Shown here one piece after another: positions 1 to 14,245 of a DNA stretch of 14,661 nt. The stretch spans positions 1-14,661 of the forward strand of contig JBNAVT010000037.1 of the NCBI GenBank assembly GCA_049700215.1, written 5' to 3'. The position numbers and the translations under genes are program-made. The stretch is from Thermoproteota archaeon. Lineage in GTDB: Archaea > Thermoproteota > EX4484-205 > JAAOZP01. The notes under the pieces are model-generated. The model did not search any database, was not told where the DNA came from, and saw nothing but the letters and a program-made list of their open reading frames with translations. Every line of letters starts with the position of its first letter. Within the stretch, counting starts at the first letter, position 1.

Positions 1-390
<390 letters not shown>

Positions 391-459: not shown

Positions 460-773
460 CAGGCAGGGGGGAAGTTGAAGGACGGGCGTCGGGTCCGAAG
501 AGGGCCTGGGGAAACTCCCTTCTTGGTGCGGGTGCTGCAGCGCCGCGAGGCGCAGGGGGAGACCCCTAGGCTGAGACAGAAACGAAGCCCCTCCGGGAGG
601 AATGTGGATGAAGAATACTGACGACTCCTGGAACGGGCGTGAAACGGGCTCAGCCTGCAGCAAGCAAGGCCGAACAGGCCAGGTGAGTAACCCGCATGAT
701 GGCCAGGTGGGCCGCTTAGTCGAATCCCGTCTCGAACAGAAAAGGGGTTACTCTCAACATCCCCCCTGCCTGT
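460..773 (+). ncRNA. rnpB: RNase P RNA (archaeal type A-like, ~313 nt)
   Basis: P1 is 13 bp: CAGGCAGGGGGGA (460-472) with UCCCCCCUGCCUG (760-772). P2 pairs GACGGG (481-486) with CCCGUC (726-731). P3 is a hairpin, GGGUCC (491-496) / GGGCCU (502-507). A CR-I-like GGGGAAACUCCC lies at 508-519 and a CR-V/J2-4-like AACAGAAAA at 735-743. P4 pairs AAC(U)CCC (513-519) with GGGGUU (744-749); it keeps the bulged U and shows one compensatory G-C to C-G swap relative to the consensus as I remember it. GCAAGCAAGGCCGAACAGG (659-677) and GGCCGCUUAGUCGAAUCCCGUC (709-731) resemble conserved M1-type strings. Confidence 0.85.
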
Positions 774-3605: not shown

Positions 3606-4571
3606 ATGGTTAGGGAACCCCCGGAAACCCATTTAAAGCCTTCCCCCGGAATTGGAAGCCGGCTGTTGAACGAGGAGGAGAAGGAGAAATACTTTGCAGC
3701 AGGCGAGATCGCCAGGAGGGTTAAGAAGGAGGCTCGTCAACGGGTTAAGGCTGGAGCGAGGCTCGTAGACCTTTGCGAGGAAATAGAGGATCGCATAAGG
3801 CAGCTCGGCGGCCAACCGGCTTTCCCCTGCAACATAGGGTTGAACGAGGTTGCGGCCCACTTCACACCGCCCCCGGGGTTTGGAGGCGAGGTTCCAGAGG
3901 GCTCGCTGGTTAAAGTGGATCTTGGTGTTCACGTTGACGGCTGCATTGTAGACACCGCGTTCACAATACCGCTCTCCCAGGTGGACAGGGAGATGGTTGA
4001 GACTGCTGAGAAAAGCCTTGAAAAAGCATCCAGCGTGCTGAGAAGCGGTGTTAAAATCAGCCAGGTCGGCGAGGCTGTTGAAAACACGGTTAAGTCGAGA
4101 GGCTTCAGGGTGATAAGAAACCTGACCGGCCACCAGATAGATCGTTTCAACCTTCACGCGGGGCTTTCAATCCCGAATCTTAAAACGTTCAGCGCTGAGA
4201 AGCTTAGGAGAGGCATGGTTGTGGCGATAGAGCCCTTCGTGACGCTGGCCGACGGTGCGGGCGAGGTCGGCGAGGCCAGTCAAGTCTACATCTATCGCTT
4301 CAAAAACTTCCCCGTAGAATACAAGGGAAGGTTCAGCAGCAGGGTTGAGAGAATGCAGAGCACGTTCAGAACCCTCCCGTTCTGCGAAAGATGGTTTTCA
4401 AGCCTCTTCAAGGAGGCTGGTGAAAGCGTCTTCAACAATATTGTTGGAGACCTGGGTAAAAACCTGGTTTCCTACCCGGTTCTGGTTGAGAGGAGCGGGA
4501 GGAAGATAGCTCAGGCCGAGGATACTTTCCTGATACTTGAGGACTCTGCTGTAAACCTGACTACAGGCTAG
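3606..4571 (+). CDS. map: Methionine aminopeptidase, type 2 (archaeal)
   Basis: GGQPAFPCNIGLNEVAAHFTP, KVDLGVHVDGCIVDTAFT, NLTGHQIDRFNLHAG, VVAIEPF and AQAEDTFLI are the metal-ligand blocks of archaeal MetAP2. The start is ambiguous: ATG 3606 (TTG 3600) or TTG 3666. TTG 3666 gives an N-terminus colinear with Pyrococcus-type MetAP (NEEEKEKYFAAGEIARRV). Confidence 0.88.
   Translation: MVREPPETHLKPSPGIGSRLLNEEEKEKYFAAGEIARRVKKEARQRVKAGARLVDLCEEIEDRIRQLGGQPAFPCNIGLNEVAAHFTPPPGFGGEVPEGSLVKVDLGVHVDGCIVDTAFTIPLSQVDREMVETAEKSLEKASSVLRSGVKISQVGEAVENTVKSRGFRVIRNLTGHQIDRFNLHAGLSIPNLKTFSAEKLRRGMVVAIEPFVTLADGAGEVGEASQVYIYRFKNFPVEYKGRFSSRVERMQSTFRTLPFCERWFSSLFKEAGESVFNNIVGDLGKNLVSYPVLVERSGRKIAQAEDTFLILEDSAVNLTTG
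3632..3637. promoter_or_regulatory. Palindromic TATA element (TTTAAA), possibly shared by divergent coaD and map
   Basis: This is the only TATA-like element between or near the two divergent starts. It lies about 27 nt from a predicted minus-strand start near 3608 (coaD, 19-nt leader with GAGG). It lies about 27 nt from a predicted plus-strand start near 3661 (just before TTG 3666). Confidence 0.4.
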
Positions 4572-4990
4572 TAGCGCTCCTCCTGCCGCCCACCCTCCAA
4601 GTATATTGCTGTGATAACCATCCTGTTTTCGACACCAGTGTCCTGGCTCTTGGGACACCGGGGGCACTCCCCACCGTATCCGTAAACATAGTCCCCCTCG
4701 CGGAAAGGCCTGACAGCCTTATAGCTGCATTTCGAGCATTCTTCAACCGTTAAAACAACTATCTTCCTCTCCTTCAGCATTTTCTGCACGCTAACCTGGT
4801 ATCTTCTTATCATGTAGAATGTTGAAACCAGTCCGGTTAAACCGGTCATTATGAAAAGCATGTTCGTAAAACTGTCATTCCTACCGGTGCCCGTGACCCC
4901 TTGAACAAGAAGGATCAGCGAGAAAAGAATGAGTAGGCCAAGCAGGAAGAAGTAGAACGGGACTAAAAGACTAGCCGGGCTTTTCTCCAC
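4568..4990 (-). CDS. Small membrane protein with a C-terminal zinc ribbon
   Basis: Two hydrophobic helices (LLVPFYFFLLGLLILFSLILLV and MLFIMTGLTGLVSTFYMI) are followed by CSKC...CPRC. GTG 4990 is preceded at 9-nt spacing by GGAGG (5000-5004), which overlaps the TAG stop of the upstream gene and suggests translational coupling. The longest ORF starts at TTG 5032. Confidence 0.6.
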   Translation of the reverse strand: MEKSPASLLVPFYFFLLGLLILFSLILLVQGVTGTGRNDSFTNMLFIMTGLTGLVSTFYMIRRYQVSVQKMLKERKIVVLTVEECSKCSYKAVRPFREGDYVYGYGGECPRCPKSQDTGVENRMVITAIYLEGGRQEERY

Positions 4991-6107: not shown

Positions 6108-6190
6108 CTATCTTTACGCCGCTGGTTTTCCAGCCTGAGAATATTTAAGCCTTTAATGGGAATTTTACGCTTGATTAACAATCCGGGTGG

Positions 6191-6332
6191 ATGGTTACCG
6201 GCTTTCAAGCCTCGCGTGGCCGAAGACCACACTAATGTTTGAAACGGAGCCGTGTTTAACTTCCGTGTTCGGAACGGCTCCGCGGGTTTCCCCTGTACGG
6301 GTGTTTCCACGGCTCCTATGGCCGGTAACCGG
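6191..6332 (-). rRNA. rrf: 5S rRNA (stand-alone gene) with a 17-nt insert in loop C
   Basis: Helix I is 10 bp, 6330-6321 with 6202-6193. Helix II pairs GAGCCGUG with CACGGCUC. Conserved strings: GGAAACACCCGU ... UUCCGAACACGGAAGUUAAAC. The gene is about 140 nt, against about 123 nt once the insert is removed. Confidence 0.85.
6278..6294 (-). other. 17-nt BHB-flanked insert (candidate mini-intron) in 5S rRNA loop C
   Basis: The central 4-bp helix is CCGU (6300-6297) / GCGG (6283-6280). The bulges are ACA (6296-6294) and AGC (6279-6277). The inner stem is GGG/CCC closed by a GAAA tetraloop (6293-6284). The outer helix is weak. Removal leaves a 13-nt loop C, ACCCGUUCCGAAC, the same length as in canonical crenarchaeal 5S rRNA. 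Confidence 0.5.
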
Positions 6333-6353: not shown

Positions 6354-6360
6354 TATTAAA
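6354..6360 (-). promoter_or_regulatory. TATA box (TTTAATA) for 5S rRNA
   Basis: Located about 25-28 nt upstream of the first helix I nucleotide (6332) on the minus strand. Confidence 0.55.
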
Positions 6361-6372
6361 TTTTTCTCCCGC

Positions 6373-8265
6373 TTAAAAAACAGTTTTTAAATATGATCCG
6401 CATAAGCATCTTTCTTCAGAAACAGGGTTAATCCTGCCGCAGCTTGCACACATTGTTTTCGGAGAATGCATGAGGAAGCTGATCCTACCTGCTTTCCTCA
6501 GGACCCCAAGCTCCTCTAAACCCTGAAGATGAATAATGTTAGACTCAGGCGTAAGGCTCTTAAGCCTGGATTCAAACCTGAACCATTCTTCGAAAGCCGT
6601 GTTCCTCGGGAAAACGTTCACACGGCTTCCTCCAAACCTCTGCGCAGCCTCCTCGTGGCTCACAAGGCTGACGAGCACCCTGTTCTCCCTCTTGGAAGAC
6701 TTATGGATAAGCTCGTTAACCCCTTTAACGATCTTCTCAGCCTCCGGGAAACTGGTGGAAACATCCTGAGAGTCAACGAGCCTGCAGGCAGCGTCGTAAA
6801 GCCCGGTTAACTCTATTATTGAGCAGCTTTTCTCCGAGAGGAAGTATGTTTCACCGTTAACCCTGCTCGACAGGGGGAGGAGCTTCCTGTCCTCCATGAT
6901 GCTTCTCAAACTCTCCCTCTTAAGCTCGAAAGCCTCGATGATCCTGCTCACGATCTCGCTCAGGTTTTTCCAGAAGGCGTCCTCGTTCAGAGAGGAGTTT
7001 TCAAGAATACGCGGCAGGTTCAGGCTTACAGAGCTCAAGATACCTGTTCTAACATAGTTGCCGGCGGCATCGTTTAAAACAGCAAGATGGTAAGTGGGAC
7101 AGGAGTTTTGAGAACCCGCTAGCACGAGGGCGCCTCCAGCGTTTAAAATCTTCGCTAAACTGCTCGCGAAGCCCTCTTCAAAAACCTTCCTGTCGTAGCC
7201 GACGAGCGAGAGAGAAAAACTGGATAAAACCGTTTTCTCAGCTATTTCCCCAAGCCTTCTCAAGAGCTCGGAGGCAATGGATTCCAGCTCCACGCTTAAA
7301 ATAATGTTCCACCTCCTCTGGCTTATCGCAATGCTCTTCAAAAACTCTTCTAAAAGCTCCAGGTCCCAGCTGTCTAAGAGGAGGCTGTTCGCATGCATGG
7401 AGGAGCTGCTGAACGCCTCGACGATCCTCCACGCGGCCTGCTTAAGCGACGACTCTCCTCCGGAGAAAGCAATATACGAATGGGTTTTCAAAAGGCTTAG
7501 GCTCGCCAGCGAGTTTACAGGCTCGTCTGGCTTAAACATGAAGCTGGCTAAATGATTAATGTTAACCGTTCCACTGAGGTGCGCGTCACCCACTTCCCTC
7601 GGAAGCTTGGCGAGAAACGCGTACTGCCTTAAAACCTCTTCACCAGCCTCGTTCACAACATCGTCGAGGCTCCGCTTAACAGATATCAGCTCAGAAACGT
7701 CGTGCACAGGCAGCCCAAGCCTCGTCAACCTGTGCCTGTAATTCTCCATCTTCTTCTCAAGAAGGACAGCATTAACATACTCCCTGATAAGGGGCGCGGT
7801 TAAATACTTCACTCCGAGAGAATACAGTCTCTCCTCTATCTCCAAGGCTATTGTTTCGGCAGTATCCTGATCCATGCCGGCCTCCCTGACGAGACACTCC
7901 TCAATCCTCTTCCTTTCGAAAAGCTCGATCGACGAGTCTGTTCTCCTGACGAGGAGAACATTCTCCTTCCTCCTGAGCGATTCGAAAAGATTCATAGCAT
8001 GGTTCAGAACATCCTTGCCCAGCGGGGTTATCACGTATATCTTGTTCTCAGGCTTATACTCGACAAGCCCGTTCTCCATAAGCTTGCTCAAATGGTATGC
8101 GAACTTCCCAGCGTCGCTGAACCTGTCAAGCCTAACAGTCTTCATCAGCTCACTGTATCTGAGCGAGTTCTTCTCCAGAATTTTCAGTATTTCAACTCGT
8201 ACTGGAAACCCCAGTGCCTTGAAGATGTCGCTCAACGTTTTGAAACCCTTGTTTTCCTCCTCCAT
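6373..8265 (-). CDS. wHTH (ArsR-like) + ATP-cone + NrdD-like domain protein without a glycyl-radical motif; putative nucleotide-sensing regulator
   Basis: The N-terminus SDIFKALGFPVRVEILKILEKNSLRYSELMKTV...FAYHLSKLMENGLV looks like an ArsR-type winged helix. VLLVRRTDSSIELFERKRIEECL...LTAPLIREYVNAVLLEKK looks like an ATP-cone. LPREVGDAHLSGTVNINHL resembles the NrdD 'aH..G.ihiHDl' block with HDL degraded to NHL. The C-terminal CASCGRINPVSEERCLCG is a Zn ribbon, and the protein ends 8 aa later with no RVxGY motif. ATG 8265 is preferred over GTG 8283 because the TATA TTAAAATA (8304-8297) predicts a transcription start near 8275. Confidence 0.65.
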   Translation of the reverse strand: MEEENKGFKTLSDIFKALGFPVRVEILKILEKNSLRYSELMKTVRLDRFSDAGKFAYHLSKLMENGLVEYKPENKIYVITPLGKDVLNHAMNLFESLRRKENVLLVRRTDSSIELFERKRIEECLVREAGMDQDTAETIALEIEERLYSLGVKYLTAPLIREYVNAVLLEKKMENYRHRLTRLGLPVHDVSELISVKRSLDDVVNEAGEEVLRQYAFLAKLPREVGDAHLSGTVNINHLASFMFKPDEPVNSLASLSLLKTHSYIAFSGGESSLKQAAWRIVEAFSSSSMHANSLLLDSWDLELLEEFLKSIAISQRRWNIILSVELESIASELLRRLGEIAEKTVLSSFSLSLVGYDRKVFEEGFASSLAKILNAGGALVLAGSQNSCPTYHLAVLNDAAGNYVRTGILSSVSLNLPRILENSSLNEDAFWKNLSEIVSRIIEAFELKRESLRSIMEDRKLLPLSSRVNGETYFLSEKSCSIIELTGLYDAACRLVDSQDVSTSFPEAEKIVKGVNELIHKSSKRENRVLVSLVSHEEAAQRFGGSRVNVFPRNTAFEEWFRFESRLKSLTPESNIIHLQGLEELGVLRKAGRISFLMHSPKTMCASCGRINPVSEERCLCGSYLKTVF

Positions 8266-8598
8266 CTTGATAATAATCTGCACAATAAGGTAAAACTATT
8301 TTAACTTAATGCTGAGGCTAACCCTCTCATTCTCATGCGAAAAAGGCGTGTTTACTACTGCACTGGAGAACAAGTCTGTTTAAAACCGTGTCGAGAGAAA
8401 TGTTTCTCAACAGTTTAAAACACAGCCTCGTTTAACCCGGCGTTTAACACCCGTATCACTGCACAAGCATCTGAGTCAAAACTCTGCTCTACTCCCGCCA
8501 CCCGGTTCGGACAGGGGTTCTCAAGCAAGCCGTAGAACGTGAAAGCACTGTTAACGAAACGCTTTTAAGCCTGTTGGCTAAAGCAAGCCTTAAGGGGC

Positions 8599-8906: not shown

Positions 8907-9000
8907 TGGGGGCACTGGGATTCGAACCCAGGTCTCGTGGGGTCTCGGAATTTTTAATCTCCCAAGCCACGGAGCCTAGACCATGCTAGCCGATGCCCCC
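8907..9000 (-). tRNA. tRNA-Pro (anticodon UGG) with a canonical 37/38 intron (19 nt, 8942-8960)
   Basis: The minus-strand RNA reads GGGGGCA UC GGCU AGCAUGGUCUA GGCU C CGUGG CUUGGG[AGAUUAAAAAUUCCGAGAC]C CCACG AGAC CUGGG UUCGAAU CCCAG UGCCCCC A. The BHB has central helix CUUG/CGAG, bulges GGA and ACC, and the anticodon stem as outer helix. A TATA TTTTTAAA lies at 9021-9028 on the minus strand. Confidence 0.9.
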
Positions 9001-12681: not shown

Positions 12682-13353
12682 TTACTTAGCAGGTGGATGA
12701 TCTAACCACAAGAAAACCTCCTGTTTTTCTGTATCCACGTCTAGGATTGTTAATTCCTCAGCGTTGTCCTCCATACTATATCCTAAGATGCAGGTTGCAA
12801 TCTTATATTCAATGAGCTTATTGGCAAGGAAATGAATATATTCCAAAAGGGGTTCCAGATCGCAATTCCTCGCCCTCACAATTATCTTGTTAAAGCGCTC
12901 CGATTCTAGTTCACAGAATATTACAGTTGTTGGGATCACCACTAAACTCCTTCCACTTTCTAATAGAGGCTTGACTCTGGGATGATTCTTAAACTTCTGA
13001 ATGAGACTTTGCTCACGCATTTCATAGGCTTCTTTAACAAACGATAGACTGTTTCTATATGCTCTCTCGTTTGAAGCCATGCGATCGTATAGGTTAACGG
13101 TAACAAAGTATATCTTGTCCGCCTTGGCTAACGCAGTGTCAAAGAGACTGTTGACCAAGCCTTCTAAATCTTTAAGTTTGCTCACGTACACCGTGATTTC
13201 GAAAAGTATGTTCTCATATCTACCATCCACCGTGATGGAAAATTCCTCCGTTGTGGTTCTCCATCTCTTGTTTAGGTATGCCCGCACGTTCCTTTCAGCT
13301 AATTCCGGGTCGTCGCCCCATCCCCAAACTCTAGCCCTTTCCATCCTTCTCAC
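12682..13353 (-). CDS. Hypothetical protein (223 aa) in the low-GC island
   Basis: Uninterrupted ORF whose start overlaps the stop of the LAGLIDADG gene by 23 nt (an alternative ATG at 13344 overlaps by 14 nt). No motif was recognised. Confidence 0.55.
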   Translation of the reverse strand: MRRMERARVWGWGDDPELAERNVRAYLNKRWRTTTEEFSITVDGRYENILFEITVYVSKLKDLEGLVNSLFDTALAKADKIYFVTVNLYDRMASNERAYRNSLSFVKEAYEMREQSLIQKFKNHPRVKPLLESGRSLVVIPTTVIFCELESERFNKIIVRARNCDLEPLLEYIHFLANKLIEYKIATCILGYSMEDNAEELTILDVDTEKQEVFLWLDHPPAK

Positions 13354-14245
13354 CTTTTAATCTTCTATACTCTCTAAATGCCTCTATGTGCTCAGGCTTA
13401 AAGCTTCCTATCTCATCCATAAACTTTTCACACTCCCTAGCTGGGACTGAAAAATAATAGCGTATACCGTCTGACCTTTCATCTTTTTCAATTTCATAAG
13501 GATGAAAGCCCAAGTCCATAAGTATTTGACGCAAGCCATCTAAGCCTTCTTTACATCTTGAGTAAAATCGTACTTGAAATCGCTTTCCATGGACTATATA
13601 TGCACTTCCGTCTCCAGAAAAGAAACCCTTCAAATATGCTCTCTTCCCCTCGTAATCTAGATGTTCTTGGGGTACTCTAAATTCATAAGCTCCTATCTTA
13701 ACGTCATAATCGCTTAAATCATAGAATACGCTTTTGGAATATACTGCCGCAGTAATTAAACCACCCCTTCTTTCATAATGATGTGGTGTCATATCATACA
13801 TCTTCTTAAATGACTCATCAAATAACTCTATAAGTACCCTGTCTTTGGAGTAAAATCTTGTCGAATAATCCGTATGATGTCTTCCTTTTGAATTTATTTT
13901 TTGATGATAAGCGTTACTTCCATCAGAGGATATTAGCCCAAAGAGTACTGCCTTCTCAAAGGTAGCTATTTCCCTTACGCCCTCTTTTGACACTTCAAGA
14001 AGCATTCCACGGCTCAGTGGGAAGAGGATTCTTCCTTCCTCGACGCGTGCCTCTGAAAACACGCCGATGATGGTGGTCTCCTTGATTAATTCATATTCGC
14101 CATCCTTTGTTTCGTGTACCTCATATTCTCCAAAGGATCTTTCCTCATGAAGGGCTTCTTCACATTCATCTTTTCTACCGGTATCCTCTGGCTCTCCCTG
14201 AAGAAATCTCCTCTGGTGCTGTCTTACGGCTGAGCCTCCTCCCAT
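13331..14245 (-). CDS. Free-standing double-motif LAGLIDADG homing-endonuclease-like protein
   Basis: There are two LAGLIDADG motifs, LFGLISSDGS and YLKGFFSGDGS, about 115 aa apart. Both keep the catalytic Asp at motif position 8. A ~95-aa acidic N-terminal extension is present if ATG 14245 is used; internal ATG 14005 would give a canonical ~224-aa enzyme. No Hint/intein blocks were seen, and the gene is not inside an rRNA intron. Confidence 0.75.
   Translation of the reverse strand: MGGGSAVRQHQRRFLQGEPEDTGRKDECEEALHEERSFGEYEVHETKDGEYELIKETTIIGVFSEARVEEGRILFPLSRGMLLEVSKEGVREIATFEKAVLFGLISSDGSNAYHQKINSKGRHHTDYSTRFYSKDRVLIELFDESFKKMYDMTPHHYERRGGLITAAVYSKSVFYDLSDYDVKIGAYEFRVPQEHLDYEGKRAYLKGFFSGDGSAYIVHGKRFQVRFYSRCKEGLDGLRQILMDLGFHPYEIEKDERSDGIRYYFSVPARECEKFMDEIGSFKPEHIEAFREYRRLKGEKDGKG

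Follow-up and report, generated by a model that had tools for sequence, protein, structure and literature searches.

Introns that are recognised through a motif of the bulge-helix-bulge (BHB) type are known in tRNA, in 16S and 23S ribosomal RNA (rRNA) and in a few mRNAs, and those known from rRNA are larger than 17–33 nucleotides (nt). To our knowledge, 5S rRNA is treated as intron-free in all domains of life. Here, we analyzed a stretch of 14,661 nt from a Thermoproteota archaeon (contig JBNAVT010000037.1 of assembly GCA_049700215.1; henceforth the window) and found a 17-nt insert (6278–6294) in loop C of its 5S rRNA gene, on the minus strand. Judged from gene sequences, this insert is probably a spliced BHB mini-intron. 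Archaeal BHB introns in 16S and 23S rRNA genes have been described from Thermoproteales, Desulfurococcales and other groups (PMC4496867), and BHB-dependent circularisation concerns 16S and 23S, not 5S rRNA (2026 paper, PMC12918454). Expanded 5S rRNAs were catalogued by Stepanov & Fox in a RefSeq screen, the sole systematic survey of oversized 5S genes in prokaryotes, in which the archaeal cases were limited to Halobacteriales and to site 104/105; several Clostridia carried helices at loop-C positions 34–37, judged to be the least obstructed site, and the authors noted that excision could not be excluded without RNA data (PMC7812874).

Like the introns of 16S and 23S rRNA, the insert described here is an intervening sequence in an rRNA gene, its BHB arises from intron–exon pairing, and its predicted removal restores a conserved core. 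The 5S inserts differ in their host RNA, in their length (17–33 nt), in having no open reading frame (ORF) and, in the window, in a relaxed motif. In addition, one strand of helix III is taken up by the central helix, which makes the splicing fold and the mature fold mutually exclusive. Archaeal tRNA introns occur at the canonical position 37/38 and at non-canonical positions, with motifs of the form hBHBh' or HBh' (H, central helix; B, bulge; h, outer exon helix; h', intron hairpin), and the 5S inserts share their size range, motif geometry and cleavage arithmetic; however, 5S genes of the type found in the window, referred to below as the Brockarchaeota type, have no scaffold comparable to the anticodon stem that closes the tRNA motif. 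The BHB processing stems that flank archaeal 16S and 23S rRNA also present the recognition motif of the same enzyme during rRNA maturation, but they lie outside the mature molecules, release whole rRNAs and have not been reported for 5S rRNA (PMC12918454), whereas the 5S motif is internal to the gene.

A 17-nt insert in loop C of the 5S rRNA gene

The Rfam 5S_rRNA model (RF00001; gathering score 38) matched positions 6193–6329 of the minus strand over its full length (model positions 1–120) with 49.5 bits. Helix I (GGUUACCGG/CCGGUAACC), read from the sequence, sets the end of the gene, which then spans 6193–6330, or 138 nt with the insert included. This agrees with the original prediction, which had placed a 5S gene of about 140 nt at 6191–6332 on the same strand, had described extra sequence in loop C and had proposed a scan with the Rfam model. 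That scan confirmed the extra sequence: the apex of loop C measured 24 nt against 7 in the model, an excess of 17 nt, and this was the sole large departure from the model.

The local sequence reads CACCCGU-ACA-GGG-GAAA-CCC-GCGG-AGC-CGUUCCGAAC-ACGG. Within it, the exon strand CCGU (6297–6300) and the insert strand GCGG (6280–6283) form a central helix H of four pairs (C-G, C-G, G-C and U·G, that is, 4/4 including one G·U). The 5' bulge ACA (6294–6296) is followed by the hairpin h' (6284–6293), in which GGG (6293–6291) pairs with CCC (6286–6284) beneath a GAAA tetraloop (6290–6287). The 4-bp helix, the GGG/CCC stem and the tetraloop had all been foreseen; they were present in the sequence, and the minimum free energy (MFE) fold of the local 39 nt was this H-bulge-h' structure.

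All structural statements of the original prediction thus hold, with one qualification at the flanks of the motif. Two 3-nt bulges had been proposed, of which ACA is closed on both sides and has the correct polarity; AGC (6277–6279) is rightly placed but its exon side is unclosed. The outer helix, put at only about 2 bp in the original prediction, is essentially absent: the BHB scanner returned 0 bp, and the 2 bp in question require a 4-nt bulge. With an outer helix of 0 bp, the motif belongs to the relaxed HBh' class, as had been assigned. Two candidate outer helices for the Brockarchaeota type were tried and rejected as not conserved: variants with CAUUCC lose the first, a G-C and a U-A pair behind a 4-nt bulge, and the second, GGAA/UUCC over a 4 × 5 internal loop, is not kept in one relative, L022 (L numbers denote loci from the scans described below). 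A kink-turn arising from the ACA bulge was rejected by eye, as no tandem G·A pairs follow the bulge.

A cleavage rule from tRNA-Pro predicts excision of the excess

The window contains a tRNA-Pro(UGG) gene (8907–9000, minus strand) with a canonical 19-nt BHB intron at 8942–8960; its match to the Rfam tRNA model (44.9 bits) has 22 nt in place of 3; ARAGORN reported no tRNA in the window, although Rfam detects this intron-bearing gene. The tRNA-Pro motif is of the hBHBh' form: anticodon-loop bases 32–35 (CUUG) pair with CGAG of the intron, GG|A and AC|C form the bulges, and the anticodon stem serves as an outer helix of 5 bp. Cuts after the second base of each bulge leave a 7-nt loop, CUUGGGC, with the intron at site 37/38. 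We took the cleavage rule from this gene. Each bulge lies 3' of its H strand and is cut after its second base, and the length of the intron equals the start of H' minus the start of H.

When applied to the 5S gene, the calibrated rule excised exactly 17 nt, which equals the excess over the Rfam model. The predicted cuts fall between C6295 and A6294 in the ACA bulge and between G6278 and C6277 in AGC. The candidate intron, AGGGGAAACCCGCGGAG (6278–6294), would thus separate a 5' exon running from the 5' strand of helix I through loop C to ...CCCGUAC (6295–6330) from a 3' exon that begins with CCGUUCCGAAC and extends to the 3' end (6193–6277). Excision of 6278–6294 gives ...CCCGUAC|CCGUUCCGAACACGG, and loop C then reads UAC|CCGUUCCGAAC. 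In this product, the spacing from CCCG to GAAC is 10 nt, the same as in the Rfam consensus and in an insert-less relative, L034, whose loop is CCCGUACCCAUACCGAAC; the two loops are equal in length and differ at two positions. The claim that removal of 6278–6294 would leave the canonical 13-nt loop C is therefore upheld by both the consensus and the spacing in L034.

Inserts with the same geometry occur in four archaeal lineages

We scanned 185,579 species genomes with the pattern ACACCCG-N(14–44)-GAACNCGGAAGTTAA, a pattern that only 5S genes whose loop C is enlarged will match. The scan returned 23 loci, comprising 18 archaeal 5S genes and five bacterial loci, four of which were assembly duplications or runs of N (L005, L008, L017 and L025) and one a chance match. 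A second scan, over 241 million metagenome records, used a pattern that also admits the normal loop length. It yielded nine more Brockarchaeota-type 5S genes, 9/9 with the insert, together with the insert-less relative L034; no insert-less copy of the Brockarchaeota type was found among these records by a pattern able to match one. Viral contigs gave no matches to the 5S pattern. Besides the window, 28 loci carry an insert, giving 29 in total, from four lineages and at two sites, with lengths of 17–33 nt. The comparison with 5S genes of relatives, which the original prediction had suggested, revealed the same motif geometry in all of these loci, and in 29/29 loop-C-expanded archaeal 5S genes the excision predicted by the rule equalled the excess over the canonical 10-nt CCCG–GAAC spacing.

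The Brockarchaeota type accounts for 20 loci including the window, with 13 distinct sequences. Its H/H' strands are CCGU/GCGG and its bulges ACA and A[G/A]C; it has no outer helix, and the inserts measure 17–20 nt. Three species of Bathyarchaeia have the same flanks, an H' of GCGG (one species) or GCGA (two species), bulges ACA and AAC, no outer helix and an insert of 33 nt. The 5S gene of the window is nearly identical to those of metagenome-assembled genomes (MAGs) labelled Brockarchaeota, Thermoproteota or Nitrososphaerota. The organism is Brockarchaeota-like, within the TACK group, and not a classical crenarchaeote.

The other two lineages use a second site, common to both, which lies 4 nt further 3', after CAU. 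Four genes of Hadarchaeota type (L006, 644–792; L013, 3218–3365; L016, 304–451; L023, 6457–6602) have H/H' strands UCUC/GAG[G/A], bulges AU[A/U] and AA[C/U], an outer helix of 3 bp (CGG/CCG) and inserts of 24–27 nt. A single Nanoarchaeota gene (L021, 5120–5257) has UCCC/GGGA, bulges AUA and AGU, an outer helix of 3 bp (CGA/UCG) and an insert of 22 nt. The motifs of both lineages are strict hBHBh' motifs in which both bulges are fully closed. A reading of these inserts as plain hairpins with the wrong bulge polarity was ruled out by re-registering the helix, with H as UCUC/GAGG. The occurrence of the relaxed form in TACK-type lineages and of the strict form in Hadarchaeota matches the known specificity of their enzymes.

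A full-text literature search, of incomplete coverage, turned up no publication that describes an intron in 5S rRNA, nor any on loop-C inserts in 5S rRNA of TACK, Hadarchaeota or DPANN archaea. The BHB intron is a known kind of element; what appears to be new is its probable occurrence in 5S rRNA, with two sites and four lineages. Lineages represented only by MAGs would have been missed by the earlier survey because that survey used RefSeq genomes.

Conservation and covariation of the motif

The 13 Brockarchaeota-type sequences, the three Bathyarchaeia and L034 were aligned with MAFFT (alignment A1). The gap opened for L034 fell exactly on the predicted splice boundaries, beginning at the end of the predicted 5' exon. 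Of the motif cells in A1, 89% were paired, as compared with 38–49% when the partners were slid. All four pairs of H were present in 14/16 insert-bearing members and three of four in two Bathyarchaeia. The ACA bulge was invariant in the 16/16 Brockarchaeota- and Bathyarchaeia-type sequences, and the 3' stretch read A[G/A]C across the family.

Among the 13 distinct Brockarchaeota-type genes, variable columns numbered 17/121 in the exons, 7/7 in the intron apex and 0/4 in the H' strand GCGG. Hairpin h' ranged from 3 to 7 bp among relatives; its third pair changed from G-C to A-U in two of them, and its variation within the 13 genes was compensatory only (G-C to A-U). Since the exon strand of H is fixed in the Brockarchaeota/Bathyarchaeia family, the support for H in this family is conservation and not covariation.

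The alignment of the five Hadarchaeota and Nanoarchaeota sequences had every h, H and h' cell paired, compared with 45–66% when the partners were slid. In five pairs, both partners had changed; examples are U-A to C-G in H and, for the outer helix, G-C to A-U. As there are only five sequences and all double changes lie on one branch, this covariation is supportive, not statistical. We also shuffled the inserts in place and asked for 4/4 pairs in H together with an h' of 3 bp or more, allowing every register in which the loop is restored. This combination was reached by 0.2% of shuffles of the window gene and by 0.2–1.2% per lineage.

The MFE fold of the whole gene, in which GCGGAGCCGU pairs with the 3' strand of helix II, was rejected as a conserved structure. 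It arises from an 8-nt repeat, GGAGCCGU, that is found only in the window, L003, L031 and L032; other relatives have GGAGCUGU against GGA[A/G]CCGU. On the minus strand of the window, the direct repeat occupies 6309–6316 (5' strand of helix II) and 6274–6281 (intron/3'-exon junction). Because it is missing from most relatives, it is probably due to chance.

Competing pairings of helix III and alternatives to splicing

CCGU (6297–6300) is not only the exon strand of H but also the 5' strand of inner helix III, whose 3' strand in the Rfam structure is ACGG (6263–6266). CCGU pairs with ACGG in 17/17 genes of A1 (100%), including the insert-less L034. Hence, CCGU has two mutually exclusive partners, the GCGG of the insert, which mimics ACGG, and ACGG itself, and both pairings are conserved. 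The loop-C bases that flank the insert retain the canonical 5S sequence; likewise, a permanent insert in the Hadarchaeota and Nanoarchaeota genes would lock the loop-C bases UCUC or UCCC in a helix, yet their sequence is canonical. Conserved pairings that exclude each other are explained by a switch from precursor to mature RNA but not by a permanent insert. We infer that a transient precursor fold, later excised, resolves the conflict between GCGG and ACGG, and in our view this is the most telling argument for the intron.

In the proposed mechanism, the 3' part of the intron (GCGG) would pair with CCGU in the primary transcript to form the 4-bp central helix, flanked by the ACA bulge and the short hairpin GGG-GAAA-CCC. 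The resulting relaxed HBh' motif would be a substrate of the type accepted by TACK-type tRNA-splicing endonucleases. The endonuclease would cut after the second base of each 3-nt stretch (C6295|A6294 and G6278|C6277), and an RNA ligase would join the exons. The freed CCGU could then pair with its permanent partner ACGG, giving a normal 5S rRNA of 121 nt whose loop C has 13 nt. The genes themselves show the motif, its geometry and conservation, the exact agreement in length and the canonical sequence of the product; that the endonuclease cuts, that the exons are ligated and that mature ribosomes lack the insert is inferred.

The same BHB evidence would also fit an insert that is cut out while the exons stay unligated, leaving 5S halves of 36 and 85 nt held together by base pairing, much like those bacterial rRNAs that are fragmented at intervening sequences; helices I and II could provide this pairing. 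We consider this very improbable. Joining would yield a perfect canonical loop C, and this points to selection acting on the sequence after ligation. Moreover, archaeal BHB cleavage leaves 2',3'-cyclic phosphate and 5'-OH ends, which are substrates of the RtcB ligase, and the exons of known archaeal rRNAs and tRNAs are ligated.

Taking the lineages together, we lean towards a broader interpretation, with somewhat less confidence than for the window gene itself. The inserts would be true spliceosome-independent BHB introns in 5S rRNA, the first in any organism, placed at two loop-C sites. Four lineages of archaea at the least would have them (Brockarchaeota-type Thermoproteota, some Bathyarchaeia, Hadarchaeota and a Nanoarchaeota). 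With its 3' end, the intron would serve as a decoy for the helix III strand, and the ribosome-competent fold would be available only after splicing, which would build a timing or quality step into the assembly of the 5S ribonucleoprotein. Splicing of the inserts would add the third rRNA to the substrates of the archaeal splicing endonuclease, and it would mean that 5S gene finders and rRNA databases give a wrong size for the 5S rRNA of several uncultured phyla. The exclusive pairing of GCGG or ACGG would then offer a simple, testable case of an intron that controls rRNA folding. Whether the inserts are spliced or retained can be tested with existing metatranscriptomes from hot springs and sediments.

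A number of observations weigh against splicing. The folding energy of the BHB conformer was no better than that of shuffles (z = +0.1), the frequency of the MFE structure was 0.18, and the centroid structure of the local 39 nt shows a competing CGGA/UCCG hairpin. The window motif is HBh' only and lacks the exon helix h of at least 2 bp that defines the strict form. In the Brockarchaeota/Bathyarchaeia family, H never covaries, and two Bathyarchaeia have a C·A mismatch in H (H' = GCGA). A host endonuclease able to use relaxed motifs is indicated indirectly, by the intron-bearing tRNAs, and splicing is predicted from gene sequences; look-ups of three spurious ORFs spanning the 5S gene, aimed at RNA-derived contigs, returned no record. 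Loose HBh'-like motifs are frequent, at about 10–15 matches per 140 nt when any length and position are allowed. As the loose motif is common and its energy unremarkable, the signal lies in geometry, position and conservation and not in stability.

The position and the fixation of the insert count on the same side. By our own mapping, the Brockarchaeota site lies between Escherichia coli 36 and 37, inside the loop-C zone 34–37 that is judged sterically free in bacteria and for which retained expansion segments have been reported in clostridial 5S rRNAs (PMC7812874). A retained hairpin is thus sterically plausible there. The site used by the Hadarchaeota and Nanoarchaeota genes maps to E. coli 40/41, again by our own mapping, and adjoins positions 42–43, which are described as blocked by uL5 (PMC7812874). 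In addition, all Brockarchaeota-type genes found carry the insert and no allele lacks it, a fixation that would fit a lineage-specific expansion segment too. The main rival explanation is that the insert is an expansion hairpin kept in the 5S rRNA. Its tips are often GNRA-like loops, such as GAAA and GCAA, and known 5S expansion segments (Halococcus morrhuae, Thermoanaerobacterium and clostridial loop C; PMC7812874, PMC7530397) resemble the inserts in adding nucleotides to an otherwise canonical 5S rRNA, in the zone 34–37 for the Brockarchaeota-type site and in that the expanded gene is apparently the sole 5S type of its lineage.

Even so, we regard retention as unlikely. Expansion segments are described as self-contained and as folding without complementarity to the 5S core (PMC7812874); the window insert does not fold in this way, since its GCGG pairs with CCGU and would rival ACGG permanently. 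The known archaeal expansions are confined to Halobacteriales and to site 104/105, are retained in the ribosome and form long self-contained helices without core complementarity, whereas the candidate introns are short, pair with the core and combine BHB geometry with a hypervariable tip. A retained hairpin would have its exposed apical loop as the least conserved part, with all seven columns varying, next to invariant junction bases. Nor would retention give any reason for the recurrence of a 4-bp helix, a 3-nt bulge and a boundary 2 nt after H' in four lineages, at two sites and across lengths of 17–33 nt. In the Hadarchaeota and Nanoarchaeota genes, the loop-C bases UCUC or UCCC stay canonical although the helix would tie them up. 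As a small control within the window, one clear extra hairpin in the 23S rRNA (235–271) showed no 4/4 BHB.

The original prediction had left the choice between a mini-intron and an expansion hairpin open. This hedge remains formally, but the first branch is favoured by the length arithmetic (29/29), the conserved H', the variable tip and the strict motifs at the second site. Retention, by contrast, would make the inserts the first expansion segments in loop C of an archaeal 5S rRNA, and odd ones, because helix III would be remodelled.

Activity of the 5S gene and splicing context of the host

A promoter-like BRE/TATA sequence (transcription factor B recognition element and TATA box), AGAAAAA TTTAATA, lies at 6354–6367 on the minus strand, about 24–37 nt upstream of the 5' end of the 5S gene, and is a putative archaeal promoter. 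The block GAAAAATTTAATAGTGG was found about 25–30 nt upstream of every Brockarchaeota-type 5S gene, with minor variants at some loci. This conserved BRE/TATA-like block fits an independent archaeal promoter for 5S rRNA. A second, canonical 5S gene, combined with a silent locus here, had been named beforehand as a sign of a pseudogene. Each locus tested with Rfam had one full-length 5S gene above threshold, and the metagenome scan gave no insert-less Brockarchaeota-type copy. Judging by the single above-threshold gene per locus, the conserved promoter block and the absence of an insert-less copy from the scans, the 5S gene is live.

These data also bear on the idea that the insert is non-functional, that is, a pseudogene feature, an assembly artefact or a chance BHB look-alike in a neutral insertion. 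Such an origin would be in line with the 10–15 loose HBh'-like matches expected per gene in any 140-nt RNA, with the unremarkable local folding energy and with the assembly duplications and runs of N among the bacterial matches of the same scan. Nevertheless, we give it hardly any credence. Independent contigs with the insert number 29 and stem from different studies, and the 5S genes on them are all full-length and above the Rfam gathering score; compensatory changes preserve the helix pairs, conservation extends to the promoter block, and no canonical second copy was found for the Brockarchaeota-type lineage in the metagenome scan. Finally, the position-specific rule is obeyed by all four lineages, although only 0.2–1.2% of shuffles per lineage obey it.

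With regard to the splicing machinery, the intron-bearing tRNA-Pro of the window implies that the host needs a splicing endonuclease. A close relative, L009, has three tRNA genes on the minus strand (4221–4327, 4443–4551 and 4763–4869) whose D loops are longer by about 35 nt; one of its tRNAs has two inserts, in the D loop and in the anticodon loop. A BHB scan of the D-loop inserts of relatives gave many loose matches and did not fix their boundaries. The lineage is intron-rich, and the extra sequence suggests introns at non-canonical positions, which are typical of lineages whose endonuclease accepts relaxed motifs.

Other features of the window

The 37-nt hairpin at 235–271 (plus strand), in the 3' domain of the 23S rRNA, reads CUGGG...GGCUGG-GCAA-CCAGCC...CCCAG and is missing from the Rfam archaeal large-subunit consensus. 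Because it has no 4/4 BHB, it looks like an ordinary variable helix. The 23S rRNA gene ends at 381 (1–381, plus strand), and an archaeal RNase P RNA (470–762, plus strand; Rfam) begins 89 nt past this end, likewise on the plus strand. Three relatives (L004, 1–1031; L014, 1–1076; L024, 1–1441) have the two genes next to each other as well, which suggests that the RNase P RNA is co-transcribed with, or processed from, the transcript of the rRNA operon.

Downstream of the 5S gene, a block at 6142–6180 (minus strand; TGTTAAT..CGTAAAATT..CATTAAAGGCTT) precedes a DUF1512 gene and is conserved in nearly all Brockarchaeota-type loci. This block may be the promoter of the DUF1512 gene or an RNA element that has gone unrecognised. 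An ORF of 636 aa (6373–8283, minus strand) that lies just upstream of the 5S gene has an unusual architecture, with an N-terminal winged helix, an ATP-cone and a partial NrdD (anaerobic ribonucleotide reductase). Outside the rRNA genes, an ORF of 304 aa (13331–14245, minus strand) has a domain similar to LAGLIDADG_3 homing endonucleases (E = 9.7e-11). This ORF sits where the window is poorest in GC (0.40 versus about 0.51) and may be a mobile element or a free-standing endonuclease.

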